Source: Candidatus Sumerlaeota bacterium | Lineage (GTDB): Bacteria > Sumerlaeota > Sumerlaeia > MWCT01 > JAUWMI01 | Length of the DNA stretch: 64,000 nt | NCBI GenBank assembly: GCA_030613245.1 | Contig: JAUWMI010000003.1 | Span: 1,062-65,061, forward strand | Reading direction: 5' to 3' | The notes under the pieces: model-generated | What the model saw: the letters and a program-made list of their open reading frames with translations, nothing else | Database searches by the model: none | What the model was told of the DNA's origin: nothing | Translations under genes and position numbers: made by a program | In this document: in pieces, positions 5,824-34,567 of the stretch | Layout of the letters: the number at the start of each line of letters is the position of its first letter | Position numbering within the stretch: the stretch's first letter is position 1

Positions 5824-6067
5824 ATCTATTCCTACCTTGCACAAGTAGTTTACGCACCACATTGAACGTAGTCATCAAAACCTAGTTTAATCCGGTGTTG
5901 AAACGTTCTTTTCTCCAGCTGGTTTCAAGGCGGGATTATATGTGCTCTTAATTGGGAATTCGCAACATGGAAGATTGTTTATCCAGGGAATGAGGCCAAA
6001 AGGTATGCGTTGCATGGCTCTGGGGTGTTGCACATGGACGTGATGAAAAGCGAAGAGGCAAATGGGA

Positions 6068-6763: not shown

Positions 6764-6808
6764 AGGAGCAGTTTGCAGTGTAATGCGACCATAGAGGAGG
6801 GGCAGGCA

Positions 6809-7909
6809 CTAAAATCCACCAATAATTCTGGAACGATCGTCACCTGCATATCCTCCGCCGACAATGCGTTTAAATGCTGGCACATCCTCGGCATTTATCA
6901 TTCCGGTTTCCAGGGTGATGAGCTTCTTGTTGTACAGATCGACTAATGATTGATCAAATGTTTGCATTCCCTCGCCGCGGTTTTTGATCACCTGCACCAT
7001 ATCGTCAACTCGATCTTCGCGCATGAGCTTTCGGACAATGTCGTTGACGATCATGATTTCTACGCAAGGAACCTGGCCTTGATTATCCGTGGCAGGGATA
7101 AGCCGCTGGGAGATTACGGCCTTCAGTGCGATGCCAAGGTCGGAGCGCAGGAGGTGCTGCTCGTCGGTGGGGAAGTAATTGATGATGCGGTTTACGGTCT
7201 GAACCGCGTTGATGGTGTGCAGAGTGCTAATGACGAGATGACCGGTCATGGCAGCGCGGATGGCGTTGGTAATAGTCTCGCGGTCGCGCATTTCGCCAAT
7301 GAGAATGACGTCCGGATCCTGGCGGAGTGTGTGGCGCAGGCTCTGCTCGAACGAGCGAGCATCTATGCCGATCTCTCGCTGCTCGATTAAGCTCATCTTG
7401 TCCTTGTGGAGAAATTCAATTGGGTCTTCGATGGTAATGATATGCTCTTTGCGGGTGGAGTTGATATAATCCACAATGGCAGCCATTGTGGTAGACTTGC
7501 CTGTGCCGGTCGGGCCGGTAATAAGGATCATGCCACGACGGTATTCTGATATTTTACTGAGAACTGGTGGGAGAGTGAGATCGTCAAAGCTCAAATGTTC
7601 GTACTGAAGACGTCGCAATGAAAGACTGAGCGTGCCTCGTTGATAGAAAGCGTTTGAGCGGAATCGGGTAGTGTTGTCAATGCTGAAAGCGAAGTCAACG
7701 GAGCCATCACGCTTGAGAAATTCCTGGAGCTTGTTCGGGACGATTTTTTCCACAATGGCGGCCACTTCTTCCTTGGTGAGAGGAGGATGCTTGATCGGCA
7801 CCAGCTCCCCGTTCACACGGTAGATCGGGACCGCACCGGTTTTGAGATGGATGTCAGATGCATTCATTGTCTCCATTTGTTTGAGCAGCTCGCTGAAATT
7901 AACGGCCAT
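6809..7909 (-). CDS. pilT: Type IV pilus retraction ATPase of the PilT/PilU family.
   Basis: 366 aa. Walker A 'GPTGTGKST', Asp-box and His-box context 'ILIGEMRDRETI', typical PilT length and layout. Confidence 0.85.
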   Translation of the reverse strand: MAVNFSELLKQMETMNASDIHLKTGAVPIYRVNGELVPIKHPPLTKEEVAAIVEKIVPNKLQEFLKRDGSVDFAFSIDNTTRFRSNAFYQRGTLSLSLRRLQYEHLSFDDLTLPPVLSKISEYRRGMILITGPTGTGKSTTMAAIVDYINSTRKEHIITIEDPIEFLHKDKMSLIEQREIGIDARSFEQSLRHTLRQDPDVILIGEMRDRETITNAIRAAMTGHLVISTLHTINAVQTVNRIINYFPTDEQHLLRSDLGIALKAVISQRLIPATDNQGQVPCVEIMIVNDIVRKLMREDRVDDMVQVIKNRGEGMQTFDQSLVDLYNKKLITLETGMINAEDVPAFKRIVGGGYAGDDRSRIIGGF

Positions 7910-7980
7910 AAATCATCACCTCTATTTCTGGAAGAAAATATTGTAAAATGCAATTTCTAATTTGCAATTTACAATTCAAC

Positions 7981-9255
7981 TCAGGATTTCCGTTTTTGCT
8001 TTTTCTTGGCCACGGGCTTTATTAGTAATGCTAGCTTATCCATGACGTGCGCGGCAACCTCTATTTTCGTCATGCGAGGAAGCGACTGGGTTGTGCCCTG
8101 TTTGTAAATAAGAGTTACTTTATTGAAATCGGACTGAAACCCCGAGTCTGACTGGCCTACGATGTTGGCGACGATCATATCAAAGCCTTTCGCGGCCAGT
8201 TTCTGTTTTGCCTGCCGCACGAGATCGCGAGTTTCTGCAGCGAAGCCGACGACAATCTGGTGTGGTGATTTCTTCTTGCAAACGGCGGCAGCGATATCGG
8301 GATTTGGGACAAGCACGGTGTGGAGGGAGGCGGAGGATTTTTTTCGTTTTTGCGGCTCCTGACTTGCCGGGCGGTAGTCTGAAACGGCTGCAGCAAGGAT
8401 GATGGCATCTGCTGTTTTGAGGCGTTTCATGACGGCCTGATGCATCTCGCGAGCAGTAATTACGCGGCGCACCATAATCCCTGGAGGATCGGGAAGGCTT
8501 GTGGGCCCTGAGATGAGGGTTACCTGGGCGCCACGGCGTGTCGCCTCCTCAGCGAGCGCATAGCCCATTTTGCCCGATGAAGGATTGGAAAGGTAGCGCA
8601 CGGGATCGAAGTATTCATGCGTTGGCCCTGCAGTGACAAGGATGCGATGTCCTGCCAGCGCAGTGCAGTGGCTGAAATATGAGGAAATGACTTCGAGAAT
8701 TCTTTCTGGCTCCTCCAGGCGGCCAATGCCTTTCTCTCCACTGGCCAGAAAGCCGGTTTGCGGTGGAATCTGGCGAATACCGCGCCCTGCCAGCTGGCGC
8801 AGGTTCTCCTGCACAATGGGATGTGTATACATGGTGCTGTTCATCGCGGGTGCAATGAAGGTGGGCCCTTGAAAGGAGAGGAACAGAGTAGATAAGGAGT
8901 CGTCGGCAATCCCCTGGGCGAATTTGCCAATAATATTGGCTGTGGCAGGGGCAACCAGGAGTAGGTCGCCCCACTCGCTGAGGGCGATGTGTTCCATCTC
9001 CCATCCATGTTCGCGGCTGAAGAGACCAGTATAGACCGGATGTCGGGACATGGCTTCAAATGTGATTGGTGCCACAAGTTTCGTGGCAGCATGAGTCATG
9101 ACGACCTTGACGTCTGCGCCTTGTTTGCGAAACAGGCTGCACAGGTCAAGGGCTTTGTAGATGGCAATGCTCCCCGAGACGCCGAGGATGATGTGTTTCT
9201 CTTTAAGCATCGGGAGTGTGGCTTTCGTGTTTTGTTTTCCATGCCTTGATTTCAT
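7981..9255 (-). CDS. coaBC: Bifunctional phosphopantothenoylcysteine decarboxylase / phosphopantothenate-cysteine ligase.
   Basis: 424 aa. N-terminal flavoprotein motif 'ILGVSGSIAIYKALDLCSLFRKQGADVKVVMT' and a C-terminal CoaB-like domain. It sits in the conserved neighbourhood with gmk and yicC. Confidence 0.9.
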   Translation of the reverse strand: MKSRHGKQNTKATLPMLKEKHIILGVSGSIAIYKALDLCSLFRKQGADVKVVMTHAATKLVAPITFEAMSRHPVYTGLFSREHGWEMEHIALSEWGDLLLVAPATANIIGKFAQGIADDSLSTLFLSFQGPTFIAPAMNSTMYTHPIVQENLRQLAGRGIRQIPPQTGFLASGEKGIGRLEEPERILEVISSYFSHCTALAGHRILVTAGPTHEYFDPVRYLSNPSSGKMGYALAEEATRRGAQVTLISGPTSLPDPPGIMVRRVITAREMHQAVMKRLKTADAIILAAAVSDYRPASQEPQKRKKSSASLHTVLVPNPDIAAAVCKKKSPHQIVVGFAAETRDLVRQAKQKLAAKGFDMIVANIVGQSDSGFQSDFNKVTLIYKQGTTQSLPRMTKIEVAAHVMDKLALLIKPVAKKKQKRKS

Positions 9256-9290
9256 TTGCCTTTTCCCCTAACCGACAAACCGACAAACTG

Positions 9291-9932
9291 TCATGAGACC
9301 TCATTTTCAGACGGCTTGATGATGCTGTTGCCAACGGCGACAGTGAGTCGCGAGGTGCGCGCTCGCTCGGCGCGAATGATGGCTTTCGCTGTCTCAATGG
9401 TCTCATCGAGAGCATCATTTACAATTACATAATCGTACTTGCCTGTATGTTCTATCTCTTTGCGACCATTGGACAGGCGTACCTGAATTATCTCTTCGCT
9501 ATCGAGTTTTCGTTCGCGTAGCCGCTTTTTCAGCTCCGCGAGGCTTGGGGGTAGTAAGAATATAATCACCGCATCGGGTGACAGGCGTTTCACGTTTAGG
9601 GCACCCTGAACATCCAGGTCCAGCAGGACATCTCTACCTTTACTGAGCTTTTCTGCAATGAGATCTTTCCGGGTGCCGTAAAGGTAATTGTGTACCCATG
9701 CCCATTCGTAGAATTGGTTTTCTTTGATCATCCGCTTGAATTCCTCTTCAGTGACGAACCAGTACGACTGGCCATGCACTTCCCCTGAGCGTGGTGGGCG
9801 GGTGGTGGCCGATACGGAGTAATCCAGCGTGTCGTCTGAAGAGAGCAGAGCGCGCAGTATGGTTGATTTCCCGCCACCAGAGGGGGCAGAGACAACAAAT
9901 AAAATACCATTTCGACTGAGGGTAATGGTCAT
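9291..9932 (-). CDS. gmk: Guanylate kinase.
   Basis: P-loop 'SAPSGGGKST' and the motif 'YSVSATTRPPRSGEVHGQSYWFV'. Confidence 0.9.
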   Translation of the reverse strand: MTITLSRNGILFVVSAPSGGGKSTILRALLSSDDTLDYSVSATTRPPRSGEVHGQSYWFVTEEEFKRMIKENQFYEWAWVHNYLYGTRKDLIAEKLSKGRDVLLDLDVQGALNVKRLSPDAVIIFLLPPSLAELKKRLRERKLDSEEIIQVRLSNGRKEIEHTGKYDYVIVNDALDETIETAKAIIRAERARTSRLTVAVGNSIIKPSENEVS

Positions 9933-10164
9933 GATGTCTGCGTTAGATTTTTCACGGATATTGTTATCAAGCCATAAGGGTGTTTTGTTTAAACACCGCC
10001 ACAGAGATCATCAGAGAATAATTCGTGCCATTCGTGTACTTGTAAAACGCAGTTAACACGAATGGGAACGAATGAAAACAAATTCCACGAATTAACTCCC
10101 TTTGCAGGGAAAACTGGATACTACTAAACGTATTCTGGACTGGGAAAATAGACTCGGCTTTTTC

Positions 10165-11055
10165 TCATTCCAGATTCTGTAATTGCTCGCGGATTTTCTC
10201 GATTTCGTTTTTCATGGTCAATACCAATGGCGCTACCGTCGTGTCGCGTGCTTTGGCCCCGATCGTGTTGGCCTCGCGTAGTAGCTCCTGGGAGAGGAAT
10301 TCGAGTCGCTTTCCTATGGGGTCGCGGCTTTTGGACTGCAGCAGCTTGCGCATCGCGTCGAGATGCGATTTGAGGCGGACCAACTCTTCTGTAATATCGG
10401 ATTTATCGGCATAGAGCAGGACTTCGGCCTCCAGGCGCTCAGACATGAGGGCTGCGCCTGAGGGTAGGATGATCTTTGCCAGGCGGTCGGTCAGATGCCG
10501 GCGGTATTTCTCGATGATTTCATTTTTTCGAGCCCAAAGGGTTTTTTGTGTCTGTTCCAACAGGCGTACCCTGTGGCTAATATCCCCGGCCAGTGCTTTG
10601 CCCTCGGCTTTACGCATGGCTTGTAGCTGACGCAGGGCTTTGCGGGTCGCGGTTTTAATGGCCGGCCAGAGGCGTTCCTTGTCAATGTGCTGTGTGGCGT
10701 GGGTGACGTTGCCGGGCAATTGCAGGAGTGATGCAAGCGGAATTTCCTGCCTGATTTTCAGTCGTTTCTTCAGGGCGGCGAGTTGACGGTAGAGTGACTG
10801 GATTGCATCGGCATTGATCTGGACTGAGGAGAGGGTTCTTGAGCGCTGCTCCCAGCCAATCCAGACGTCTACTTTACCTCGGCGAATCTCAGCCTTGAGA
10901 TGGTCACGCAGCCGGGGCTCGACAAAGCTGAGCACACCGGGGACGCGAAAGTTAAAGTCAAGGTAACGGCTATTATAGGTTTTAATTTCGACTGTTAGTT
11001 GGCCCAGCGGGTGTTTGAGAGTTGCCGAGCCAAAGCCTGTCATACTGCAGATCAC
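10165..11055 (-). CDS. yicC: YicC-family stress-induced protein.
   Basis: N-terminal 'MTGFGSATLK...TYNSRYLDFNFRVP' is the YicC N-domain signature. It lies upstream of gmk as in many bacteria. Confidence 0.85.
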   Translation of the reverse strand: MICSMTGFGSATLKHPLGQLTVEIKTYNSRYLDFNFRVPGVLSFVEPRLRDHLKAEIRRGKVDVWIGWEQRSRTLSSVQINADAIQSLYRQLAALKKRLKIRQEIPLASLLQLPGNVTHATQHIDKERLWPAIKTATRKALRQLQAMRKAEGKALAGDISHRVRLLEQTQKTLWARKNEIIEKYRRHLTDRLAKIILPSGAALMSERLEAEVLLYADKSDITEELVRLKSHLDAMRKLLQSKSRDPIGKRLEFLSQELLREANTIGAKARDTTVAPLVLTMKNEIEKIREQLQNLE

Positions 11056-11084
11056 TGTGAATCACCTCAGTGTAAGAATTGTTT

Positions 11085-11149
11085 TGTAGGGGCGTTTAAC
11101 TAAACGCCCATTGAGCTGTGTCTGGGGCGTTCAATAGAACGCCCCTACA
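11085..11149. repeat. REP-like element made of two hairpins in a GTAGGGGCG...CGCCCCTAC frame (BIME-like unit).
   Basis: tgtaGGGGCGTTTAacTAAACGCCC ... GGGGCGTTCaataGAACGCCCCtaca. Both arms are perfect or near-perfect 9-10 bp stems. Confidence 0.8.
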
Positions 11150-11172
11150 ATGCGTATCATGGCAAGATGAAT

Positions 11173-11682
11173 TTAACGCCTCTGCTGATAGATATCTTTC
11201 CAATATAGACCATGCTCAAGGTTAAAATTCTTTGATGATGGGTTTTCTCTATCCAGCTCCCAGTTTATGGGATTGTTCTGAATGTATTCCCTAATTCGGG
11301 ACAATTCCTTCTCGTTACGAATAATGTGTTCGTAATAATTACGCTGCAATTTGAAATTTGAAAAACCATTTTTTCTGCACCAATTTGTCAATGCTGTCTT
11401 ATACGTGCGGATTATTACAGACAAGGTGTTCTTCCTTGGGGATATTCTCACATGATGTGTAGGGGCGTTTAAATAAACGCCCCTCGAGCTGTGTGTTGGA
11501 TTACCAGCTGATCTATCAGGGGCGTTCAATAGAACGCCCCTACAATGTGCATCATTTTCAGTAATCATTATTATTCCATGTAGGTGGTTTGGCATGACTA
11601 TAAATTCATCCAATTGGGTATTACCATGGTGCGCTGATATCTCCTGCCAAAACTTGTCTGCTTTCTTTCCTATTGTAGACAA
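11173..11682 (-). CDS. IS200/IS605-like Y1 (HuH) transposase of the REP-associated tyrosine transposase (RAYT) type. Its reading frame runs through a REP pair.
   Basis: HuH motif 'MPNHLHGIIMI'. The C-terminal 'FKLQRNYYEHIIRNEKELSRIREYIQNNPINW' matches the RAYT tail (catalytic Tyr; YI..NP..W). Residues ~47-85 (CRGVLLNAPDRSAGNPTHSSRGVYLNAPTHHVRIS) are the translation of the REP element at 11458-11544. That stretch is therefore either an in-frame REP insertion or a recently inactivated gene. Confidence 0.6.
   Translation of the reverse strand: MSTIGKKADKFWQEISAHHGNTQLDEFIVMPNHLHGIIMITENDAHCRGVLLNAPDRSAGNPTHSSRGVYLNAPTHHVRISPRKNTLSVIIRTYKTALTNWCRKNGFSNFKLQRNYYEHIIRNEKELSRIREYIQNNPINWELDRENPSSKNFNLEHGLYWKDIYQQRR
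11458..11544. repeat. REP-like two-hairpin element lying inside the RAYT ORF.
   Basis: tgtaGGGGCGTTTAaaTAAACGCCCC ...35 nt... aGGGGCGTTCaataGAACGCCCCTaca. Confidence 0.8.
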
Positions 11683-12020
11683 GATAACGATACCTTCTTT
11701 TACATGGCCAAGACTGCAGAAGCTATTGTATGTACAAATTGTTACAAAATATGCACCTGCCTCGGAATAATCATACCCTTTCAGCCGAATAACCTTTCTA
11801 TTTTACATATCGCCTCAATAGCTGAAAGAGATCATTTTAGCCAGAGGGATTGCTTGCTAAGTCATTGGCATATTTTGACGAAACACGATACTTCAACTTC
11901 TATAAGTACCGACCCCTAGAATATGCGCTCTCGAATGCAATTCCTCCAGCATGGTGACGCATATCATAAACGATGTTCTTTTAAAAAGTAAAGGGGAATA
12001 TCTTGTTCCTATTTGCTTTT

Positions 12021-12107
12021 TGTAGGGGCGTTTTAATAAACGCCCGATGAATAGGTCCGTCTTGAATTAAGCAGGTGTGTCTGGGGCGTTCAGTAGAACG
12101 CCCCTAC
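12021..12107. repeat. REP-like two-hairpin element overlapping the 3' end of the AI-2E transporter ORF.
   Basis: tgtaGGGGCGTTTTAATAAACGCCC ... GGGGCGTTCagtaGAACGCCCCTAC. The last 13 aa of the transporter ORF (RRGVLLNAPDTPA) are the repeat's translation. Confidence 0.8.
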
Positions 12108-13266
12108 GTTTGGCTTCGCGGAGCTTGTCCCACCAAAATTCTTTGATCAGGATGCGCACGACGCAGGCCACCGGAATTGCTACGATCATCCCCCCCAGTC
12201 CGAAGTAAGCGCCAATCATCAAAGCGAGCAACACGGCCAGGGGATGGAGTTCGCTGTTCTTGCCCACAATGCGGGGCGTGAAAATCATACTGTCAATGGC
12301 CTGGATCAGGGCAAACAGGCCGATTACCTCTGCTGAACCTATCAGCTTATCCGAAAGACTGGGGAAACCGCTGGACGCGAGTACCCAGATGAGCGATGGA
12401 ACTGCCCCAAGCAGAGGTCCAAGGTAGGGAATGATGTTACCGATGCCAGCCACGACGCCAATAAGAATGGCATACTTCTTCAGGCCGATAAGCAGCAGGC
12501 CAATCGTGGTCAGCAGTCCTACAAGGCAGCAAATAGTCAACTGGCCCCGCAAAAACCCACCAACTGCCTCATCAATCCGGTTGAGAATGCTGAATACTCG
12601 TTCTTCGTGCTTCGTCGGGATAACTGTTGATACCAGACCCTTGATCTTATGGAAATCCAGCAGGAAGTAAAAATTGATTATGACCACAAGAATCACGAAT
12701 GAGGTCAACGAGAAAAATAATCCGAATCCGGCGGCCACTCTTTTGGCCACCGCACCTGCTACAGAGACTCCCTCTGCGGCTGCGCCGTGCAGTCCCGGAA
12801 GCATGGCGCCGAGAACGCTGCGAAGATCAGTTCCCAGGGATTCTAATGTGTCTGTGATCTTCTGCATTTGCGCTTCGTTCAGTGTGATATCGTATCTCTT
12901 CATGAGCGTGTTGAGCTGAGCCGGTATGACTTCGCTGAGGCGCTTAATGAGTTCGCTGATCTGATGGTAGAGATTGGGTAGTAAGAAGAGCATGAACGCG
13001 GCGATCAACAGCAGAATGATGACGTAGAATGTGACAAGACCCAGGATGCGCGAGAGTTTGAGCCGCTGCTGAACGAACGTCACAATGGGATTAAAAAGGT
13101 AGGCAATAATCAATGCGACGCAGAACGGTGCCAGGATGTTGGCAATTATGCGCAAAACAGGGCTGAGCTGCACCAGTGCATACACTGCAACGGCGATGAT
13201 AAGCATGTATCCGATCACGAGCAGCGTTTTCTTTAGCTTCGTATCAAGATCAGGTATGCTTCCCAT
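12067..13266 (-). CDS. AI-2E family transporter (UPF0118/PerM-like).
   Basis: 399 aa, ~8 TM segments. 'ILAPFCVALIIAYLFNPIV' and the overall topology are typical of AI-2E family permeases. The annotated C-terminus runs into the REP element, so the true stop may be functionally the same. Confidence 0.7.
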   Translation of the reverse strand: MGSIPDLDTKLKKTLLVIGYMLIIAVAVYALVQLSPVLRIIANILAPFCVALIIAYLFNPIVTFVQQRLKLSRILGLVTFYVIILLLIAAFMLFLLPNLYHQISELIKRLSEVIPAQLNTLMKRYDITLNEAQMQKITDTLESLGTDLRSVLGAMLPGLHGAAAEGVSVAGAVAKRVAAGFGLFFSLTSFVILVVIINFYFLLDFHKIKGLVSTVIPTKHEERVFSILNRIDEAVGGFLRGQLTICCLVGLLTTIGLLLIGLKKYAILIGVVAGIGNIIPYLGPLLGAVPSLIWVLASSGFPSLSDKLIGSAEVIGLFALIQAIDSMIFTPRIVGKNSELHPLAVLLALMIGAYFGLGGMIVAIPVACVVRILIKEFWWDKLREAKRRGVLLNAPDTPA

Positions 13267-13513
13267 GGGTTTGTCCTTCCATTATGAAGCGGACGAGCGA
13301 GTAGTCTATGGTGCGTCTCCTGACGCTTCTTCGCCATCAGCGTGAACAGACACAGTCTGGCAAAGCCTGCGGAAGAGCGCAATTCTTTTCTACACGGAGG
13401 GATGGCTGTAGAAGAAGGGGGTGAGGATTGGCGTCCATCAGGTTCGGCACTGCAAGGCGTCCCATGGCGGAGATGAAGGCGAAACGCCTTAACGACCGTT
13501 GCAGGGGGTTTGA

Positions 13514-14509
13514 CTAATCAAACCCCCTCTCATCTTCATCGGCTTCATCGAGGGAGGAGTAGATGCGTTCTTCTTCCTCCCAGACGCGCAGTTGTTCCCG
13601 GCGCTCGCGCTGTTTTCTAATGTAGGCGAGGATGAACAGAAGCGCGACGAGAAACCACAATACGGAGGTGCTGGTGAGCACGAGCAGCCAGTTCTTGAAT
13701 ATACTGCCGAGCGAGCGCTGCCACGCCGTTTCTAAGCCGTCGCGCATCATGGGATCCCAGAGACGCTCGATCAGGCGTGGGCCGAGTTTCGAGTCGGCCA
13801 GGTCGAGCAGGAAGCCATCGAGCCCCTTGTCGGCATAGGCGCGTTTGATCAGGAAGTTAATTATGGAATAGCTCTGTAGGTAGGCGAGGTGGAGTTGACG
13901 GCCGTCCTGAGGGAATGTGGCCACGAGCTGGCGAAATGGGATAAGCGTGCCGAAAATACGAGCCCAGGTGAGGGTAAGCGAACCGCCGAACGACCGTTGG
14001 CCGGCGAGATGCATGGCAAGGCCTTCGTCAGCCCAGCGCGGTAAACGTGCCGGAAGCTTGCGCCCGAGAAAGAGGTGTGCATATTCGTGGACGAGGGTCT
14101 TGCGGACTTGCGATGCAGGAAGTGAATGGATCTTTTCGGCATTCAGGTAGATTGTTAGGGTCTTAGATACAGCGGCGGCGACAATGCTTTCACTGGCGAA
14201 ATTGGTGCGCGATTGAAATTCCTTTTGCGTGCGGCAAATGACGAGCCGGGTTTGCTCCCGAAATGAAACAGCAGTGCGTTTGAAAATCCGAATGCGCGCT
14301 TGCTCTGCCATTTCAAGCATGCCACGAGCGAGCGGCTCGTTTGACTGCGGAAAGACGACGGTGAAGTTTTCCGATCTGAGCTCGCGTTGCTCTTGCGCGC
14401 CAAGGTCGCTGGTGCCCAGCATCCCGGCTGAGTGCAAAAGAGACAGAAGCCACAGGAATAACACTAGCCGAAGCAGCGGCGCATAATATGGTTTTCGGTT
14501 GATGAACAT
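13514..14509 (-). CDS. Putative secreted/membrane-tethered zinc metallopeptidase (peptidase_MA-like, HEXXH).
   Basis: N-terminal signal peptide, 'TLVHEYAHLFLG' HEXXH motif with a downstream 'ADEGLAMHL' (third ligand Glu), a C-terminal TM helix and an acidic tail. Confidence 0.5.
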   Translation of the reverse strand: MFINRKPYYAPLLRLVLFLWLLSLLHSAGMLGTSDLGAQEQRELRSENFTVVFPQSNEPLARGMLEMAEQARIRIFKRTAVSFREQTRLVICRTQKEFQSRTNFASESIVAAAVSKTLTIYLNAEKIHSLPASQVRKTLVHEYAHLFLGRKLPARLPRWADEGLAMHLAGQRSFGGSLTLTWARIFGTLIPFRQLVATFPQDGRQLHLAYLQSYSIINFLIKRAYADKGLDGFLLDLADSKLGPRLIERLWDPMMRDGLETAWQRSLGSIFKNWLLVLTSTSVLWFLVALLFILAYIRKQRERREQLRVWEEEERIYSSLDEADEDERGFD

Positions 14510-14621
14510 AAATAATCACGCTTGAGAAATTATTTGCAGGGCAAAAGCATTTGCCGCACTCTGCCGCTTATCATGCACACATACATGGGTTACCCTAACG
14601 AATGAGGGTAGAGATTGTAAA

Positions 14622-14894
14622 CAGGTTTTCGTCACGATGCGATCTGGAGGCGCTATCTTTATGCTCACACTGAACAAGGTATGTTGCACAGGCAAGGATG
14701 CCTGTGCCACCAATTACAATGGGCAATGCAAGAGGAAATACGTGAAAATGAAAAAATTAAAAATGGTAGAACAGGCTTCCAGCCTGTTATCAGGTTTTCG
14801 TCACGATGCGATCTGGAAGCGCTATTTTTATGCTCACACTGAACAAGGTATGCTGCACAGGCAAGGATGCCTGTGCCACCAATTACAATGGGCA
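14622..14894. repeat. Two ~105-bp direct repeats (14622-14726 and 14791-14894, ~95% identical). Each contains the perfect hairpin CACAGGCAaggaTGCCTGTG.
   Basis: Direct sequence comparison. The repeats lie in the intergenic region between the GT39-like gene (upstream on the minus strand) and the HEXXH peptidase gene start. Confidence 0.8.
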
Positions 14895-14903
14895 TGGTAG
14901 TAC

Positions 14904-16592
14904 TCATAGCTTATAGATTTTAATAATCGGGCCTGAGGAGCGAAATTTTTCAGGTGCGAATTGGCGCAACAGGGTGGTCTGGTCGTCGAGGCGCTGATAG
15001 AAGGCCTTGACGTTTTCAAATCCTGTGCCGCGGTACTCAAAGAATCGCTGATACATATAGCTACTGGTGATCACGTGGGTGATACCAGCGGCATGCAGAT
15101 CAGAGAGATGGGGGACGGTTTGCTCTGAAGTTTTGCCGTCAATGATCAGGGCGGGAAAGGCGATAAAGTGCGAAGTGTATTGCGGTGCACCTTCGTTGTA
15201 ACGAAGTGCTTTGGAGAAATAGAGGCCGCTTTCACCTGCTGCTTCCTGTTCCTGAGCGAGCTCCCTATATACCGCGTCGCTAAACCGAATAGCAGGGTAA
15301 TAATGGAAGTAAAATGGGCCATCTATGAGCAGCGTGGCTGTGGCAGGGATGTTTTGTTCGATCCATTTCCCGGCTTGCATTCTGGTGTCAGTGCCGAGGA
15401 GAGTGACGTCATAGGGAACAATTCGAGATAGCTGCCACACGACAATTGTAATGACCAGCAGAGTCCGAATCCGTGGTTTGAACCAGGGGAACGCGGTGAG
15501 TCCTCGTGCAGCAATCACAGAGCAGAGCGGCGTGACCATTGTAATGTACTGGTAGTCAAGGTGGTGCGAGAGCGCTAGCATGAGCAGATAGACGAATAGG
15601 AAGACGAAGATGAGCACGAAGGGCGGCTGGCGTTTTGCGAGCAGTGCGAAGGTGGCTACAACGATAAGGAGCAATAGTATCCAGCCGTATTCCTTCAACA
15701 TGGTCAGGGCCAGAAAGCCTATGCCCGATTGTTGCTCGTAGCCCAGAACGATCTTCTTCCCGGTAATCTGTTCCAGGATCATTGTGTGGCGGAGTTCGCG
15801 CAGGAAATCTAGCGGATGCAGAAGCGCGTAGGGTGTGCCGAGTAGGAATGCGAAAAGCACGGCGCCAATGGCGAGGAGGAGGCGAGCGTCCGCAGGCTGA
15901 AGAGCGAAGCTCGCATGCGCATGGTTTGATTGTTTTCGCACGAAGAAGTGTGCAACCAGAAGAAAGAGCAAAGCCGGAGCAGCGTTGTATTTCGTTGAAA
16001 CAGCAAAGCCAATGGCCAGGCCGCACCAGAGGTAGGCCCACGGTGTGGGTGTCTTGAGGATACGCAGCGCTCCGAGCAGTGCCAGGCTGACAAAGAGCGC
16101 GGCCAGAATGTCCGTCTTGGCGTAATGCGCGTATTGAATTGACAACACCGCAACTGCCATGAATGCGGCGGCAAGCAGACCAGTGCGTTGATCTGCCACG
16201 CGTTTGCCGATCCAATAGACCACGATGATTTGCAGCGTACCGGCAAGTGCGGACGTAAGACGTGCCAGCAGATAGAAAAGCGAGGGATTCACGAAAAAGA
16301 GGCGTTCAAATGCAGAAATAGTTAGAACAATCCCAAGGAGCTTGAGGAAGATAAACGCCGCTGTATATTCGACGAACAGGACGATATTGTATAGCGTCGG
16401 TTTGTTCAGGTGTCGGGGCTTGAGATCGCCGCTTGAAAATTTGAGCGCTTTCGAGACGTTATCAATTTCGTCGGACGCAAGGTAGCCGGGATTTGGGAGT
16501 CCGTATCCGATACCGACCACGCGAAGACCCAGACCGAGGATGATGATTCCCAGAAGAAGTACAAGTGTCTTATGCTGTGCAAGGCTCGCCAC
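14904..16592 (-). CDS. Polytopic membrane glycosyltransferase, GT39/ArnT/PMT-like (dolichyl-phosphate-mannose protein mannosyltransferase family).
   Basis: 562 aa with >10 TM helices. The first periplasmic loop carries the acidic 'ASDEIDNV' motif characteristic of GT-C family 39/83 enzymes. The C-terminal soluble domain is ~200 aa. Confidence 0.5.
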   Translation of the reverse strand: MASLAQHKTLVLLLGIIILGLGLRVVGIGYGLPNPGYLASDEIDNVSKALKFSSGDLKPRHLNKPTLYNIVLFVEYTAAFIFLKLLGIVLTISAFERLFFVNPSLFYLLARLTSALAGTLQIIVVYWIGKRVADQRTGLLAAAFMAVAVLSIQYAHYAKTDILAALFVSLALLGALRILKTPTPWAYLWCGLAIGFAVSTKYNAAPALLFLLVAHFFVRKQSNHAHASFALQPADARLLLAIGAVLFAFLLGTPYALLHPLDFLRELRHTMILEQITGKKIVLGYEQQSGIGFLALTMLKEYGWILLLLIVVATFALLAKRQPPFVLIFVFLFVYLLMLALSHHLDYQYITMVTPLCSVIAARGLTAFPWFKPRIRTLLVITIVVWQLSRIVPYDVTLLGTDTRMQAGKWIEQNIPATATLLIDGPFYFHYYPAIRFSDAVYRELAQEQEAAGESGLYFSKALRYNEGAPQYTSHFIAFPALIIDGKTSEQTVPHLSDLHAAGITHVITSSYMYQRFFEYRGTGFENVKAFYQRLDDQTTLLRQFAPEKFRSSGPIIKIYKL

Positions 16593-28000: not shown

Positions 28001-28432
28001 AGAGGTCTAGAACCTGACTATTTGATAATGCAAAAAGCTTGCCAATAGCAAGGGAAAAAACAGGCAGAATCTTAAGTCCAGTAAAAACAATATCCCGGAG
28101 CATATTTTTGTGGGGTGCGTTATCTGAAGATCATGTCGGGCGGATCAAGAATGAAGAATATTCTTCAATTTTGTAGAATGGATTGTAGATAATTCTGCAG
28201 TGAGATTAAGGAATCAATGATGAATGTGCCTCTAATGGGCGGGGAGAAAGGAAAACTGTTGATAGGATCCAAGCTGAATGCTTGCCTGCTGCTGCTGGCT
28301 ATTATTGGCTGCTATTTCTTTTCAAACATTTTGTCTACAGATTGTTTGCTTATCTTTCTTTCAGTTGATCGGGTGTAGCGCGTCCGCTGTAACGAGATGT
28401 TAGACGACCAGGCCATTGATGTGGCTTGGCTA

Positions 28433-28951
28433 TCAAGTTTCTTTGCGCAGCCGAATAACTACAGACCTGGCAATGAAGTCGTGTATTGCCCGTCGCTTCT
28501 TATTTGTAAGCATGGTTACCAGTTCGGCAAGAAACCATATGGACAATGTGTAGCTAAGAATCCAGCTCCACAAACTTAGCTCTCGAACCTCATATGGATT
28601 TACTCCTTTGAGAATGGTCGGCAGGTAAAACGCTGTTTGAATTGCCACAAATGCAATGGCCACGCTGTCCCTGAGTAACGCCTGGAACATGGATAGTTTC
28701 GACTCCGATAAATCAAGGACTTTGACTCGTGTTACCATCTTGCCAAGCGTTTGCCCGAAATTCCCATGCATCAACACGCTATAGGCTAGGTATGAGAATG
28801 ATGAGATGATGAACCAAATGGCCAATACACCTTTTGCCGTAATACTGGCAAAGACCCACGAGTGTAAAAAGGAGAGCGGAAGAAACACAAATCCGTCGAT
28901 TACGCCAGCCCAGAATCTACGCCAGAAGGTTTTATACTTGAGTTCGATCAT
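28433..28951 (-). CDS. RDD family membrane protein.
   Basis: 'KTFWRRFWAGVIDGFVFLPL' N-terminal RDD-type motif, three TM helices, conserved Arg/Asp positions. Confidence 0.55.
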   Translation of the reverse strand: MIELKYKTFWRRFWAGVIDGFVFLPLSFLHSWVFASITAKGVLAIWFIISSFSYLAYSVLMHGNFGQTLGKMVTRVKVLDLSESKLSMFQALLRDSVAIAFVAIQTAFYLPTILKGVNPYEVRELSLWSWILSYTLSIWFLAELVTMLTNKKRRAIHDFIARSVVIRLRKET

Positions 28952-29062
28952 TTCGCCGCCTTATATAGCCGCTTCATTTAGTTATTGGGTTTGGGTTCCA
29001 GCGATCTGCAACAGCTGCGGTGCGGGTTGACAAGTAGGCTGCGTTTCATGGTCAGGTGGTCT

Positions 29063-30043
29063 TTATTCCAATGTGTTTGGAGTAATCTCGATTTCGACGA
29101 CGTTGGAAGGGATTCTCATGTCTGTCATAGTGACTTTTCCATGGTGCCCAGCGTCGCCGTGTTCTTCTATCCTTTCAAATATTTGAATGCCCTTCCCGCT
29201 GAACTGCACTTTGTACTTGCCTGGGGTTGTGAAAGCGTACTGACTGCTAATATCGAAGTTGTCGAAAAGAACATCACGCTCACCGGGCTTTATTGCATGG
29301 GAGGCGCCGAATATCTGAAATTCGTCTGCAGTACAGGGGATACGATCTCCGTGCTCGTCGGTTATGGTCATTGAGTTGTTCACATTGATATACCCTAACT
29401 CCAACTCTCCATCATTGATGAGCTCGAGGCGGAACAGCAAGGGCTGGCCGAGAATAAACGTATCGCTCACCGGACTCAAACGAATTTCGACGTCTTTCAA
29501 TTTTTGCTCCAGGGCCTTCCGTTGCCCCGCATATTCTTCGGATTGGCGCTTTTTCCGAAGTGTTTCCTGTTCAATCCATAGTTCAAGAGGTATTGGCTCA
29601 AAGTCAATAAGCCATCCTGCCTCGGTTTTGTTGACGGTCCATTTCCAGCTGATTGTTGGTTTAATACCTGGCTCTCGGAATCGCATAGAGCACCCGAAAC
29701 TGGTCTGTTCTTTTTCGCGCAGCCCTTGCCATCGCGATACGGGGAAGCTCTTCATCTGAACAAGTTGTTTAACGGGCACCACGTCGCGAAAGAAGGCTTC
29801 TGTTGACTCATATTTTTTAGCTTTTGTAATGACGCTTTCTGAACAACACGATAGAGCCTTCTCCCATTCACATTCTTTAAGGTCCTGCTGAAATCGATGC
29901 ATCACGCTTAAAGCTTCCTCAGATAGTGTGAGTATCCTGACGGGTTTTCCGAGGCGGCTCTCCTCCTGCGCCGAAACTTGATAAGCGTATAGCGCCACAA
30001 GAGCAATGAGAACAATTGCAACTGTTATGAACCGGGTTTTCAT
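29063..30043 (-). CDS. Hypothetical secreted protein.
   Basis: 326 aa. N-terminal signal/anchor 'MKTRFITVAIVLIALVALYAYQVSAQ'. No recognisable catalytic motif. Confidence 0.4.
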   Translation of the reverse strand: MKTRFITVAIVLIALVALYAYQVSAQEESRLGKPVRILTLSEEALSVMHRFQQDLKECEWEKALSCCSESVITKAKKYESTEAFFRDVVPVKQLVQMKSFPVSRWQGLREKEQTSFGCSMRFREPGIKPTISWKWTVNKTEAGWLIDFEPIPLELWIEQETLRKKRQSEEYAGQRKALEQKLKDVEIRLSPVSDTFILGQPLLFRLELINDGELELGYINVNNSMTITDEHGDRIPCTADEFQIFGASHAIKPGERDVLFDNFDISSQYAFTTPGKYKVQFSGKGIQIFERIEEHGDAGHHGKVTMTDMRIPSNVVEIEITPNTLE

Positions 30044-30113
30044 GGTCTTCCTCCTAAGCGGGAGTTTATGGGGTTTCGTAGTCTGTCCCCTTGAGCACTT
30101 TGTTATGCACTCT

Positions 30114-30647
30114 CTACTTCACTTTCTTCTTCGGGTAAGATATGCCGAGGTCTTTCGCTATCTGCTCAAATCCGCGTTCGTCCTTGTACTGTTCGATATC
30201 TAGGCCGCGCGTTTGGACTTTCTGCCAAGACGAGCGTGCGTCGTGATGCCTTCGGATGAACGATGCTGGAAACGTGTAGAACTCTGGAGCGCTGGCACCG
30301 TCACGCACGGGGTGCCGCTTTCTCATTTGAAGGAAGTAGCCAACGTTCATGAAGACAACTATAAGGTAATCGAAGGCATCGAGTGTCTTCTCTTTCACAG
30401 GGAATCCACGGTCGCAGTCTGTGGCGAGGCGGCTCTTAACTTGGACGCGGATTTGCCTTCCGCTCCGCCGGGGGTTTGGATGAATGCAGATCAGGTCGTA
30501 ACCCTCGTTTTGAGGAGGCGCCTTGTATGTGAGGATATCCCTCCGCATCAAGTTCCCCATGACAAGATACTCGGCGCCATATGATATTACAGGATACCTG
30601 GTGAACACCGATTTACCCTTTTTCATCGTATTCCTCTTGAGTGGCAA
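30114..30647 (-). CDS. Hypothetical protein with a possible PD-(D/E)xK nuclease-like core.
   Basis: 'EGYDLICIHPN...RQIRVQVKSR' gives a D...(Q/E)VK arrangement reminiscent of Hjc/NucS-type 'iEVKs' motifs. Weak call. Confidence 0.3.
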   Translation of the reverse strand: MPLKRNTMKKGKSVFTRYPVISYGAEYLVMGNLMRRDILTYKAPPQNEGYDLICIHPNPRRSGRQIRVQVKSRLATDCDRGFPVKEKTLDAFDYLIVVFMNVGYFLQMRKRHPVRDGASAPEFYTFPASFIRRHHDARSSWQKVQTRGLDIEQYKDERGFEQIAKDLGISYPKKKVK

Positions 30648-30745
30648 AACTGTGCCAAATGAACTTCAAAATGGGGAGCGACGGTATTTCTGACTTCCCT
30701 TGAAGCACCATTCAAAATGCCATCTGTCGCTATTTTACCCATAGG

Positions 30746-31705
30746 TTAGGCCTTCCTGGTAACTGAAATCGCTTCTTCTACCGCTAACCTGGCTAGGAGT
30801 TTTACCACACACACGTCTGCCGCGAGCTCGAAGTAGGAACTATCAAAGTTGACAGGTACGATGTGATGCCCATGAGCCAGTCCGCAACGGTTGGTATTAT
30901 AAAGGTATTTTGCTACGCCAGCCGGGTCCCGCCACTTGATCAGGAGTTCGTCAATACGCTCTTGAGCTCGAAACATGTAGAACGCGATTGCGTCAACGGG
31001 ATCGGCGCCGGGATATTCGCTGTGATGAACGAAGATGCGGTCTTCTGTGAGGGACTTAAGGTCCCGGAGGCTTTCACCAATCCATCTTTTGCCGTTGTTC
31101 CCCGTATGGCTTTCTATGGCTCGATAGTAGCACAGATATTCCGAGGAGTGATCCATCTGCCTGAGGCCAACGGCGTAAAGGTGAATGCTGCGGGCGGCCA
31201 CGGAGTAGAGATCGCGAAGAGGGAGTTGATCTCCGTGCCTTTGATTAAAGTCGACAAATGTCAACGGACCGTGCCGAGATTCTCGGGCCATTTCCAGACA
31301 ATGCAAGTAGTCGCGGATGAAAAAAGTTTGCTCGAGAGTACCTGGCTGAAACGGCTTAATGGGCCGGTAGCTAACAGAGTCGCGAGCCTCATCTACAAGG
31401 GTCAAAACAGCCCCCTGCTGGGTGCCACCGTTCACGTAGCGATATTTATAGCGTTCGAATTCCTCAAAAGCGGGCCGCACAAATGCTGGAGAATCGTGGA
31501 GATACGCCAGGCAATCCGCCCAGAATAAAGCATCTTCCAGTGTGACTTGTGGCGACTTGACCAGTGGCAGCGTCCAAAGTATCCCTGACGGATGATCATT
31601 ATGTAGAACCACGCGATCGTCGATCACTAGGCCATCCGCTTGCTCGGCGTTCAGGCCGCACACTACAATCGGAAACACATCCTTACGTTCTTCGTCTACC
31701 TTCAC
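30746..31705 (-). CDS. Hypothetical protein with a HEPN-like R-x4-HG motif.
   Basis: 319 aa. Near the C-terminus 'YNTNRCGLAHGHH' matches the HEPN/Abi Rx4HG signature (RNxxAHG-like). No other family signature. Confidence 0.35.
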   Translation of the reverse strand: MKVDEERKDVFPIVVCGLNAEQADGLVIDDRVVLHNDHPSGILWTLPLVKSPQVTLEDALFWADCLAYLHDSPAFVRPAFEEFERYKYRYVNGGTQQGAVLTLVDEARDSVSYRPIKPFQPGTLEQTFFIRDYLHCLEMARESRHGPLTFVDFNQRHGDQLPLRDLYSVAARSIHLYAVGLRQMDHSSEYLCYYRAIESHTGNNGKRWIGESLRDLKSLTEDRIFVHHSEYPGADPVDAIAFYMFRAQERIDELLIKWRDPAGVAKYLYNTNRCGLAHGHHIVPVNFDSSYFELAADVCVVKLLARLAVEEAISVTRKA

Positions 31706-31759
31706 TGTTAAGAGACCTCAGGAGAGCTAACGGATCAGCTTGATTGCACAGTTAGATGG

Positions 31760-32440
31760 TTATTCAGAATCTTGATCTTCACCCCAAAGAAACTTCACTC
31801 CTGTGAAGCGGACCAACGTATTTTTCTTGAGCCAATTAGGAGGTTTAATTCCACCTTGATCATGAAAATGAAGCAACATTTGTTGCGCAATATTACAGTA
31901 TTTATCCGTTGGCGTTTTGTAACCTATGCGCTTTAAATTTTTATTAAAAAGCTGATCCTCTGGATATGGGTGAACTATAAAATGCCGTGAATCCTCATTG
32001 AGTTCTTTAAAATCCTGCCATAGTATAGGATTTACTTCATGTGGTTTTTTATAATTTAATAAATCGCATAATGTTTTTATTCTTTCTGATAATTCCCGCG
32101 CTTTTTTATGCCTGGCTAATTTTCTAAAATCATCGACTTCTCCAAATAACTCGCGAAAACGCTTTGACCTTTGGCAAGTATCGTCTCTCTTTTCCCATAT
32201 TCTGTAAAGTTGATAGTTAACAAAAGATTCAATAGCTAAGTAGCTATAGATTATTGTTACAGAAACAACACTAATTGTAGCATTTATGATTGGATTACAG
32301 CCATGTTTTTCAATAAGTCGATCTACATTTGGGTGATCCAGCTTGAGAGAAACGATCGATGATCTTGCAATCTCAAGATAACAATGTGTTAGATTTAGAG
32401 TGAATCTAGGATTACCGCTTGTCATTTTCATATCTTCCAA
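31760..32440 (-). CDS. Hypothetical protein, AT-rich, with an R-x4-H motif.
   Basis: 226 aa. Markedly AT-rich coding sequence. 'EDSRHFIVHPYP' contains Rx4H. Lys-rich. Confidence 0.3.
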   Translation of the reverse strand: MEDMKMTSGNPRFTLNLTHCYLEIARSSIVSLKLDHPNVDRLIEKHGCNPIINATISVVSVTIIYSYLAIESFVNYQLYRIWEKRDDTCQRSKRFRELFGEVDDFRKLARHKKARELSERIKTLCDLLNYKKPHEVNPILWQDFKELNEDSRHFIVHPYPEDQLFNKNLKRIGYKTPTDKYCNIAQQMLLHFHDQGGIKPPNWLKKNTLVRFTGVKFLWGEDQDSE

Positions 32441-32474
32441 TTAACCCGTCTAACGTTTGGCTCAGCGGCGGGCG

Positions 32475-33611
32475 CTATTCCTTGTCGGCTGGATCTGTTT
32501 GTTGGGATCGTTTTTTTCTCTTTTCATAGGATTTCGCCAAAGCGGCTGCCTTCAAGTATACACGCTGCTGCAACTCTTGATCGCTTATGTCGCCGCGCAA
32601 GAATGCTTCCGTATCTGGTGTTGTGGCCTGCAACACGGCCACCTCGAAATCCATTTCCTCGTCCTCGCACAATCCTGGCGGCTTGGGGATATTAAGGGAC
32701 CATCCGACCTCTCGGGTTGGGCCGCCCCGAACGAAAAATGGCTCGCGGCCCCCCTGCGTGAGCGTATTACCTTCTGCCTTCTTCTCTTTGTAGTAACACT
32801 CTAGGTGGGGAGGTAGTTCCCACTTCTTGGTCGACAGGGAGTAGTGGGCACCCAGAATCTTCAGGACACTCTTTGACTTCTCGATTGAGCAATTGAGGCG
32901 CTCAGCAAGCTCACGCGAACTGACGGATGTATTTTCGCCAAGATATCGCGCTGCCTTGAAGAGAATTCCATCCGGTGCCGAAAGGGCCTTAAGCCCAGCC
33001 AGTCTTCGATTAAGGTAGATGAACGCACTCTCGAAAACGCGTTCAAAATCGTCACCCATCTGGACGGGAGCTCCCTGCACAAGGGGTTCTACTTTCTTTA
33101 TGTGTGCCTTGGGCAGACGCTCCCACATTCTGCGACCTTGCTTTTTTAGAAGGTCGTAGGAGATTCCGCCGAGGATGCCTGATGCCACGAAGGAGGCGAT
33201 GAGGAGAACCGCATCGACAATGAAGCCCATCCGGTAGTGTGTTTCGGGAACCGACACTTCATACAGGGCCGGAATGTCGTCAGGTTTGCATACCTGTTTG
33301 AAACCGTTCCATGCGTCAGGAAAGAACGTCTCGTAAGTCTCTGCTGTGACGTAGAAATGGATGCTGTACGCAGTTAGCGCAAACGGGCCGCAAAGCTCAT
33401 CGCCGTGTGTGCTTAGGTAGTGGCATTGATAGCGGGGTATTCTGGCCACTCGGAGAAAACGGGCATCCTTGTCACGGCAGTCTTCACATTGCCCCAAGCT
33501 CGATGTTAGGAACTCCGGATCGCTGCCAAGCAATTCGAGAAACTGCCCGCGGAGGGCTTTGCCACAGCCGAGACAGTAGCCCAGGTTCAGCGTTTCCGAT
33601 GTCCTCTTCAT
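32475..33611 (-). CDS. Hypothetical protein with an N-terminal zinc ribbon, a single TM helix and a C-terminal winged-helix-like region.
   Basis: 'CLGCGKAL...CEDCRDKD' is a four-Cys ribbon. The TM helix is 'FIVDAVLLIASFVASGILGGI'. The C-terminal region 'ENTSVSSRELAERLNCSIEKSKSVLKIL' looks like a wHTH. Confidence 0.35.
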   Translation of the reverse strand: MKRTSETLNLGYCLGCGKALRGQFLELLGSDPEFLTSSLGQCEDCRDKDARFLRVARIPRYQCHYLSTHGDELCGPFALTAYSIHFYVTAETYETFFPDAWNGFKQVCKPDDIPALYEVSVPETHYRMGFIVDAVLLIASFVASGILGGISYDLLKKQGRRMWERLPKAHIKKVEPLVQGAPVQMGDDFERVFESAFIYLNRRLAGLKALSAPDGILFKAARYLGENTSVSSRELAERLNCSIEKSKSVLKILGAHYSLSTKKWELPPHLECYYKEKKAEGNTLTQGGREPFFVRGGPTREVGWSLNIPKPPGLCEDEEMDFEVAVLQATTPDTEAFLRGDISDQELQQRVYLKAAALAKSYEKRKKRSQQTDPADKE

Positions 33612-34029: not shown

Positions 34030-34567
34030 ACTATTAGACAGGATGAAAAAACGTAAAGAATCTTGTAAATCTTGTAAATCATGTCCAAAAAAAAGTAAAA
34101 AGAAGGACAGAAATTATCAGACAGGATTGACAAGATTAACAGGATTTAAAGACGTAAAGAATCTTGTAAATCATGTAGATCTTGTCCAAAAGAATTTAAA
34201 AAGAAGCACAAACATTATTAGACAGAATTAACAAGATTAACAGGATTTAAAAACATAAAGAATCTTGTAAATCATGTAAATCTTGTCCAAAAAATTAAAA
34301 CGAAGCACAAAAACTATCAGACAGGATTGACAAGATTAACAGGATGAAAAACGCAAAGAATCTTGTAAGTCATGTAAATCGTGTCCAAAAGAAATGACAA
34401 GAATTATTAGACAGGATTAACAAGATTAACAGGATTTAAAGACGTAAAGAATCTTGTAAATCTTGTAAATCATGTCCCAAAAGAAATGACAAAAATTATT
34501 AGACCGGATTAACAAGATTAACAGGATTTAAAAACGTAAAGAATCTTGTAAATCGTGTCCAAAAAGC
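34030..34567. repeat. Minisatellite of ~5.5 tandem copies of a 95-100-bp unit. It is not a CRISPR array.
   Basis: The unit is approximately agacaggattaacaagattaacaggatttaaagacgtaaagaatcttgtaaatcatgtaaatcttgtccaaaagaaatgacaagaattatt. Both the 'repeat' and 'spacer' parts are conserved between units. Each unit has the internal inverted repeat acaagatt/aatcttgt. Confidence 0.85.

Follow-up and report, generated by a model that had tools for sequence, protein, structure and literature searches.

In this work, we analyzed a 64-kb window of the genome of a Candidatus Sumerlaeota bacterium (contig JAUWMI010000003.1), in which six consecutive minus-strand open reading frames (ORFs), designated p1 to p6, occupy positions 28433-33611; all coordinates refer to this window unless another locus is named. 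A sequence-only reading of the stretch had described these genes as a co-directional island without housekeeping signatures, bounded by a minisatellite and possibly forming an uncharacterized defense module. The six ORFs and the minisatellite were confirmed (Table 1), and the same gene calls were obtained on an identical 7.8-kb contig from another sequencing run/sample. The genes from p6 to p3 are all co-directional and are separated by gaps of 34-119 nt. The comparative analysis presented here points to a small variable islet in a housekeeping neighborhood, not to a co-evolved system. In this islet, the lineage-restricted gene p6, which probably encodes a membrane-anchored zinc-ribbon and winged helix-turn-helix (wHTH) protein, would be followed by three unrelated, separately acquired single-gene units, p5, p4 and p3, with p5 as the putative latest arrival.

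Table 1. Genes and sequence features of the islet, with positions in the 64-kb window
Feature	Position	Strand	Description	Basis or location
p1	28433-28951	-	RDD-family membrane protein	Pfam PF06271
p2	29063-30043	-	hydrophobic N-terminal segment, signal-peptide-like	without family match
p3	30114-30647	-	PD-(D/E)xK-like E26...D51...Q69-x-K71, solo gene	alignment A3
p4	30746-31705	-	two-domain protein with C-terminal MauJ domain, putative HEPN-like RNase plus sensor domain	Pfam PF17419, alignment A1, AlphaFold2 (AF2) model
putative 33-nt attC remnant ATCTAAC-N19-GTTAGCT	31725-31757	-		directly after p5 stop codon
p5	31760-32440	-	AT-rich, all-alpha, putative HEPN-like RNase, putative stranded integron-type cassette	composition, alignment A2, AF2 model
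cassette 5' core GTTAGAC (G|TTRRRY type)	32448-32454	-		upstream of p5
p6	32475-33611	-	zinc ribbon CxxC...CxxC, transmembrane (TM) helix and wHTH-like segment, near-orphan	
minisatellite	34033-34558		5.4 copies of ~101 nt, ~28-35% GC	

The p5 gene is the sole compositional outlier of the locus. Its GC content is 0.344 and its GC content at third codon positions (GC3) is 0.269, with the drop beginning and ending sharply with the ORF, while GC3 is 0.51-0.66 in every other gene measured. The composition shift noted in the sequence-only reading holds for p5 and not for p3, p4 and p6, the GC3 of which (0.56-0.64) is window-like. The boundaries of p5 became apparent in comparison with its relatives. 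When the p5 genes of the window and of two other loci, L011 and L015, were aligned together with their flanks, the similarity extended from GTTAGAC to (A/G)TCTAAC. Between the window and L011 it spans the region from the 11-mer GTTAGACGGGT, which lies at the 5' core and is identical in both loci, to TCTAAC just past the p5 stop codon, and stops exactly there. These ends correspond to the core sites of integron cassettes, G|TTRRRY and RYYYAAC, and the cores co-vary between the loci. In the window, the cores GTTAGAC and ATCTAAC are complementary at six of seven positions. The cores of the L011 homolog, GTTAGAC and GTCTAAC, are complementary at all seven positions, and GTCTAAC opens an 86-nt attC site with an extrahelical base (folding z = -1.9); the next L011 cassette has GTTGGGC with GCCCAAC. 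At L015 the complementarity of GTTAGGC and GCCTAAC is likewise 7/7, the attC site, which begins with GCCTAAC, has 131 nt (z = -2.2), and the array holds at least five further attC sites among toxin-antitoxin (TA) genes. The remnant found after p5 in the window consists of an inverse core and a hybrid core. On the simplest reading of these data, p5 became stranded as a cassette between p6 and p4, and the locus itself is not an integron; this reading accounts for the ORF-sized AT-rich footprint. Defense and TA genes are known to travel in integron cassettes (bioRxiv 10.1101/2024.07.02.601719; PMC12614218), and a HEPN family of integron cassettes has already been listed (PMC3710099).

Several further observations were made at these loci. 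The L015 array (7051-15469 of that locus, on a 4.58-Mb metagenome-assembled chromosome, ERZ25072999) is a sedentary array of integron cassettes in which at least six attC sites are present, one example being located at 9968-10029 (GCCCAAC...GTTGGGC, 62 nt). Its cargo includes BrnT/BrnA, a second BrnT with a helix-turn-helix (HTH) antitoxin, DUF4279, DUF2442 and the p5 homolog, which seems to be frameshifted at its C-terminus. At L011, four copies of (A/G)GATTCCC, spaced ~21-27 nt apart, occupy positions 7880-7975 directly upstream of the GTTAGAC core of the p5 homolog; they resemble attI direct repeats, no integrase gene is adjacent, and panB is located upstream. In the window, attC-like sites after p4 and p1 do not fold and were dismissed. 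The sequence GTCTAACATCTCGTT at 28399-28405 (minus strand), 28 nt past the p1 stop codon, is much like the start of the L011 attC site, GTCTAACATCTGCGTT; the 72 nt after it show no fold (z = 0.11), and this site may be a chance occurrence or a strongly decayed attC.

The p5 family comprises 38 homologs and has no Pfam domain. The database gene call starts p5 at position 32425 (221 aa), and its true start is likely the ATG at 32425 or 32431. In alignment A2 (31 sequences), the segment SRHFIVHP (residues 151-158) contains an invariant H157 and residues R152, H153, F154 and P158 conserved in at least 90% of the members; an upstream block I-E-S-F-x-N-Y (E71/S72/N75) is also conserved in the family. 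The AF2 model (pLDDT 84) is all-helical, with the R-H-x3-H motif closing helix 138-156, followed by a loop and helix 162-175, and with the conserved acidic residue E71 placed in the upstream helix 49-83. In a Foldseek search of the PDB, by far the top TM-scores belonged to the HepT HEPN toxins 7bxo, 7ae6, 6m6u and 8yuf, at non-significant values (target TM 0.35-0.55, E-values of 2-6). The genomic neighbors of p5 relatives include BrnT/BrnA, PemK, YafQ/RelB, and DUF5343 with DUF4145, and in a single case, L016, an MNT-like nucleotidyltransferase gene follows the p5 homolog. In L122 (2579-3740) and L123, the p5 homolog is followed by a gene for a 182-aa protein that contains an R-D-N-V-A-H motif; GTTAGAC precedes this gene as well. 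The two genes are parted only by GTCTAAT-CATA-GTTAGAC, and the second looks like another tandem HEPN-like cassette.

The p4 protein belongs to a rare family, with 25 homologs among 5.8 billion proteins. Residues 175-309 match the Pfam domain PF17419 (MauJ) at 34.9 bits against a gathering cut-off of 28, and the domain is matched by all 23 aligned relatives (best E-value 9e-18). The name MauJ stems from a methylamine-utilization gene cluster. The p4 homologs examined are all located outside such clusters, no usable discussion of the family was found in the literature searched on MauJ/PF17419, and the name is silent on mechanism. In alignment A1, which contains the 23 relatives with 28-37% identity to the window protein, R273-C-G-x-A-H278-G279, from the segment NRCGLAHG (residues 272-279), is invariant, as are E189, Y193, Y194, R195 and E198. 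In the AF2 model (pLDDT 85.5, pTM 0.84), residues 1-160 form an alpha/beta N-terminal domain, and the C-terminal domain is helical; in the latter, Rx4H closes the penultimate helix, 261-278, and enters the loop before the last helix, 289-318; the acidic residues E189 and E198 lie in the upstream helix 186-201. The N-terminal domain, for which no matching family was found, carries the conserved patch Y62-x-D64-C65-x-A67-Y68-x-H70-D71. This near-invariant patch (residues 29-73, 'YADCxAYxHD') also takes in D29 and P73, and it could form a ligand pocket or a second active site.

Relatives of p4 adjoin genes for TIR, integrase and terminase proteins, for AIPR, transposase and PIN proteins, or for an SRA-HNH protein. 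In L007, a p4 relative from Thiovibrio lies between HigB/HicB and YoeB modules and is directly followed by genes for a DUF4145-like protein and a pEK499_p136 HEPN protein. This region (8001-10749, Thiovibrio frasassiensis, JAPHEH010000001.1) comprises three tandem HEPN-type genes, encoding the MauJ-like p4 homolog, the DUF4145-like protein (318 aa) and the pEK499_p136 HEPN protein, between HigB/HTH/HicB and Phd/YoeB, an arrangement reminiscent of p5-p4 in the window. In L002 (1-12111, on the 1.2-Mb contig JGI 3300062134), the p4 homolog is found within an integrase-bounded element that also encodes a VapE-like primase, a large terminase and a TIR_2 protein, and that looks like a phage satellite or a defense-carrying island.

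An Rx4H motif on its own is uninformative, as it occurs in 32 of the 59 window ORFs of at least 150 aa (Rx4HG in four of them). The motifs of p4 and p5 are meaningful because they are invariant or near-invariant across each family. In HEPN proteins, Rx4-6H is located where helix 3 ends, running into the loop before helix 4, the Arg is followed by N, D or H, an acidic residue is present in an earlier helix, and an insert may occupy the space between helices 2 and 3 (PMC3710099). According to the AF2 secondary structure alone, both p4 and p5 have the motif at the HEPN-typical position together with an upstream acidic residue, and H153 of p5, conserved in at least 90% of the family, is a polar residue of the expected type after Arg. 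The conserved residues and the predicted topology thus suggest a HEPN-type catalytic site in both proteins. No kinship between the two was detected, the hhalign comparison of p4 with p5 being non-significant. One hhalign comparison aligned RCGIAHG with RNALGHG of a HEPN family at E = 0.49, which is a lead only.

The third single-gene unit, p3, represents a large family of 2,214 homologs that is covered by no Pfam, NCBIfam, PADLOC or PHROGs model. The homologs are 56-78% identical across the full protein set and 55-75% in 80 genome loci, and they occur in Planctomycetota, Verrucomicrobiota, Nitrospirota, Cyanobacteriota, Acidobacteriota, Myxococcota, Chloroflexota, Ignavibacteria, Bacteroidota and Pseudomonadota. 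The database gene call starts p3 at position 30626 (170 aa). Alignment A3 samples many phyla with its 26 sequences; at least 90% of them keep E26, and D51, Q69, V70, K71, S72, R73, D77 and D79 are invariant. The order E...D...QxK is what we take to be that of Mrr-type PD-(D/E)xK cores, and one of the 26 members matched PDDEXK_5, at E = 0.11. The DNA similarity between loci (~66-72%) is restricted to the ORF. A mobile element with conserved ends was thereby ruled out, and the p3 sequence is old and under strong constraint at the protein level, unlike that of an element which spread recently.

Among the 141 nearest-neighbor ORFs of p3 homologs, Mrr is the most frequent annotated type (five loci), followed by BrxE (three) and LmuA (three weak matches); the BrxL, BrxA, BrxH, LmuB, DrmD and ZacA models have single matches each. 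Genes of the BREX, Lamassu and Zorya systems are represented in this set. PIN, PemK, ParE and integrases also occur, together with many ordinary enzymes. In L056, the p3 homolog is itself an integron cassette located between two nearly identical attC sites (z = -2.8 and -6.1); the array has at least 13 in total. The attC sites of this large array (453-12136, Blastocatellia metagenome-assembled genome, CAVSDJ010000007.1) closely resemble one another, are ~90-105 nt long and follow at distances of 0.3-3.3 kb, and the p3 homolog cassette occupies 6001-6495.

The first gene of the islet in the direction of transcription, p6, encodes a protein of 378 aa with a hydrophobic helix at ~129-154 and an HTH-like stretch at ~225-262. 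Its relatives form only 7 clusters among 1.84 billion representatives, and none was found in a metagenome scan. The family keeps the four Cys residues, the TM residues S140, S144, G145, G148 and D153, and the HTH-like segment, and its consensus gave sub-threshold matches to HTH_11 (2e-4), HTH_24 (1.6e-3), MarR and a C4 zinc finger. After a p6 homolog with 59% identity come a GGACT gene and a genuine ApeA (ApeA_NTD1 + HEPN_Apea), with xseA nearby, and a homolog with 31% identity has transposase fragments before it and a type I HsdR gene after it. Defense-type genes are located downstream of the p6 family in three of the three contexts seen. It looks as if p6 is the resident conserved gene of the locus, followed by interchangeable conflict-type cargo.

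The minisatellite, which is AT-rich, lies within the 1.1-kb divergent gap between p6 and xseB. Each unit of ~101 nt carries the doubled 9-mers GATTAACA(A/G)GATTAACAGGAT and TCTTGTAAATC(A/T)TGTAAATC. The repeat has no Rfam match, no further copy in the window and no exact match in viral contigs. It may be an array of binding sites, possibly for the wHTH segment of p6. For the closest p6 homolog, the contig reaches only 192 nt beyond the gene on the upstream side, and a repeat at that place too could be the reason. A minisatellite of the window type was looked for beside the p6 homolog in L126 and was absent.

The possibility that these genes form one module was examined by searches for their joint occurrence. 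In tblastn searches with all six proteins against the loci around p4 and p5 homologs, only the query family was found, and ORF clustering revealed no recurrent neighbor around 80 p3 loci and 25 p5 loci; for p4, the co-occurrence result rests on about 8 distinct readable loci. No recurring antitoxin or MNT gene is present beside p4 or p5 homologs, and none is present in the window. Since there is neither co-occurrence nor a recurrent neighbor, each of p3, p4 and p5 is a solo gene. It is the type of neighborhood (conflict, TA and defense genes) that recurs, not particular neighbors. The search of PADLOC-DB 2.0 with the six proteins yielded no match with an E-value below 0.7. When the six proteins, every member of A1, A2 and A3 and the family consensuses were scanned against Pfam, NCBIfam, PADLOC and PHROGs, just RDD (p1), MauJ (p4), the sub-threshold HTH matches (p6) and the lone weak PDDEXK_5 match (p3) were found.

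The remaining genes of the islet are bystanders. The p1 protein matches Pfam PF06271 (RDD) with an E-value of 1e-22 and 81.3 bits against a cut-off of 24.1. The signal-peptide-like N-terminus of p2 was judged by eye from the translation, and the protein, which is likely exported, has no family match in Pfam, NCBIfam, PADLOC or PHROGs. Nothing links either of them to p3-p6 or to defense. The flanks of the islet are of a housekeeping kind, with xseB and dxs upstream and beta-helix proteins downstream, and with a PilT-like ATPase, YicC, a TlyA-like methyltransferase and NAD kinase (nadK) farther out. No tRNA and no Rfam match were found in the window or the islet, and a promoter and terminator scan revealed no signals beyond shuffled expectation. 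A 221-aa antisense ORF is located inside p4 (30863-31528, plus strand), and a comparable antisense ORF lies opposite p3 homologs in 14 loci; both are most probably shadow ORFs that GC-rich coding sequence gives rise to, not genes.

The proposed explanation of the locus combines these observations. The p5 gene would have arrived last, as an integron-type cassette that kept its cores while its attC site decayed. Both p4 and p5 would most plausibly be stand-alone HEPN-type, metal-independent RNases; p4's N-terminal domain would hold the enzyme off until a signal is sensed, as in single-protein abortive-infection RNases such as ApeA, and p5 would be a compact all-helical version. The p3 gene would encode a solo protein under strong constraint, the E...D...QxK core of which is like that of restriction endonucleases. 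We consider the chances to be about even that p4 and p5 are such HEPN-type RNases, inactive until triggered (p4 through its N-terminal domain, by analogy with ApeA), and that p3 is an independent nuclease-like protein.

A number of results weigh against this explanation. The 33-nt remnant after p5 forms no hairpin (-1.7 kcal/mol as DNA, z = -0.22), a strict search for attC on both window strands gave 0 sites, and no integron integrase was found among the ten mid-size window ORFs scanned or with one tblastn probe. Neither p4 nor p5 has a HEPN match in Pfam, NCBIfam, PADLOC, PHROGs or the PDB sequence profiles, Foldseek searches of their models against the PDB and BFVD gave nothing with an E-value below 0.06, and the hhalign comparisons of p4 with pEK499_p136, of p5 with DUF4145 and of p5 with an adjacent Rx4H protein were non-significant. 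The residue after Arg in p4 is an invariant Cys (C274), not N, D or H. For p3, the PDB profile search and the hhalign comparisons with neighboring Mrr proteins were negative, and its very high conservation, with saturated synonymous sites, is unusual for a defense nuclease. Certain homologs of p4 and of p3 are located among plain housekeeping genes. With regard to mobile elements, p4 and p5 were not found in the plasmid and viral-contig collections, and p3 was not found in the phage collection and had two distant plasmid matches and two matches in viral contigs.

One alternative assumes no conflict function at all: the genes would be accessory, possibly metabolic or structural, the Arg and His residues of p4 and p5 would not serve RNA cleavage, and p3 would be a conserved enzyme or a DNA-binding protein. 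The lack of profile or fold evidence for HEPN or nuclease domains, the homologs among housekeeping genes, the unusually strong purifying selection on p3 and the host-like composition of p3, p4 and p6 are all in line with it. It is nevertheless rather doubtful, as the HEPN signature is invariant at the HEPN-typical position in two unrelated families, and as the families are rare, patchy across phyla, cassette-borne and often located beside TA or defense genes. It is quite unlikely that p5 and/or p4 are TA- or addiction-type selfish genes, that is, HEPN toxins which stabilize the locus or array and are neutralized by a neighbor or by their own extra domains. Relatives do occur inside type II TA clusters and in integron arrays, where TA cassettes are common, and the gene following one p5 homolog is MNT-like, the classic partner of HEPN toxins; however, p4 and p5 of the window have neither an MNT gene nor a small antitoxin-like gene next to them, none is recurrent at the homologs, and p6 is a 378-aa membrane protein that has other neighbors elsewhere.

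The sequence-only reading itself, in which p6-p5-p4-p3, perhaps with p2 and p1, constitute one multi-gene defense system with a membrane or HTH sensor, two HEPN effectors and a nuclease, is highly improbable. Many of its individual observations hold: the Rx4H motifs that it picked out in p4 and p5 are the family-invariant or near-invariant ones, the D...QVK arrangement in p3 (D51, Q69-V-K71) is conserved together with an upstream Glu, and the sketch of p6 as a protein with a Cys4 ribbon, a TM helix and a wHTH-like tail agrees with the family conservation and the sub-threshold HTH matches. Relatives of p3, p4, p5 and p6 have TA or defense genes beside them in a sizeable share of their observed contexts. 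The p1 protein is an ordinary member of the RDD family. The common direction and short gaps of the genes, as well as the defense-type genes immediately downstream in all three p6-family contexts, would fit a single system. Against it, homologs of p3, p4 and p5 are scattered and were never found together or with a common neighbor (about 8 p4, 25 p5 and 80 p3 loci), p5 is an insertion of one gene with foreign composition and the boundaries of a cassette, the cargo after p6 is wholly different between relatives, and PADLOC gave no match. The sequence-only reading had named as grounds for its own rejection that profile or structure searches recover no HEPN or nuclease fold and that homologs are scattered without a conserved neighborhood; this is largely what was observed, with no significant HEPN or nuclease family in Pfam, NCBIfam, PADLOC, PHROGs, PDB profiles or Foldseek.

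A further-reaching possibility is that the p3 family is a new single-gene defense or addiction nuclease, and/or that the MauJ domain and the p5 family are two unrecognized branches of HEPN, with p6-type proteins marking or regulating a defense hot-spot. This is unlikely as well; if p3 were such a nuclease, a universal target in the cell would account for how extremely conserved it is.

Comparison with known systems helps to place the proposed stand-alone effectors. ApeA consists of one HEPN protein, which cuts the anticodon loops of tRNA once a ligand binds to a separate pocket (bioRxiv 10.64898/2026.01.26.701840). Like p4, it combines a conserved non-catalytic N-terminal domain with a C-terminal helical Rx4H domain and is encoded by a solo gene in variable, defense-rich neighborhoods, whereas p4 has no ApeA_NTD1 or HEPN_Apea match, an unrelated N-terminal domain, a MauJ domain and a Cys after Arg. 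The HepT toxins of the type VII HepT/MntA systems share with p5 an all-alpha structure and Rx4H at a helix end, and provide its best-superposing PDB chains, although at non-significant scores; unlike HepT, p5 is ~90 residues longer, has no MNT partner in the window and shows no sequence similarity to it. Integron cassettes have the structure seen in the p5 and p3 homologs of L011, L015 and L056, which are single ORFs with G|TTRRRY and an attC starting with RYYYAAC in attC arrays, while p5 of the window has the cores only; an attC hairpin and an array are absent there, and the ORFs tested include no integrase. The Mrr/PDDEXK_5 nucleases share with p3 a Glu in the predicted first helix followed by D51 and Q69-x-K71 in the same order and spacing; in contrast to Mrr and restriction enzymes, p3 has no profile match and a far higher conservation than usual. 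Tentatively, these genes may be regarded as uncharacterized families that fall into known kinds, namely solo effectors of a HEPN-like type, a solo gene resembling nucleases, and integron cassettes.

The chief practical value of this analysis is that it corrects the reading of the locus as a defense module and names single genes that are testable, while no major open question is changed. The results of greatest use are the origin of p5 as a cassette, the signature of HEPN-like type in the MauJ domain and the unannotated p3 family. The latter is a large and very conserved family outside all four profile libraries searched, and it is a candidate for a cheap defense or toxicity screen. The p5 gene would provide a concrete case of gene movement as an integron cassette that became stranded at an ordinary chromosomal site. 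If p4 and p5 are active RNases, they would represent two more families of infection-triggered HEPN RNA cutters, and the Pfam name MauJ, which now refers to methylamine utilization, would mislabel the p4 domain and need to be re-read.

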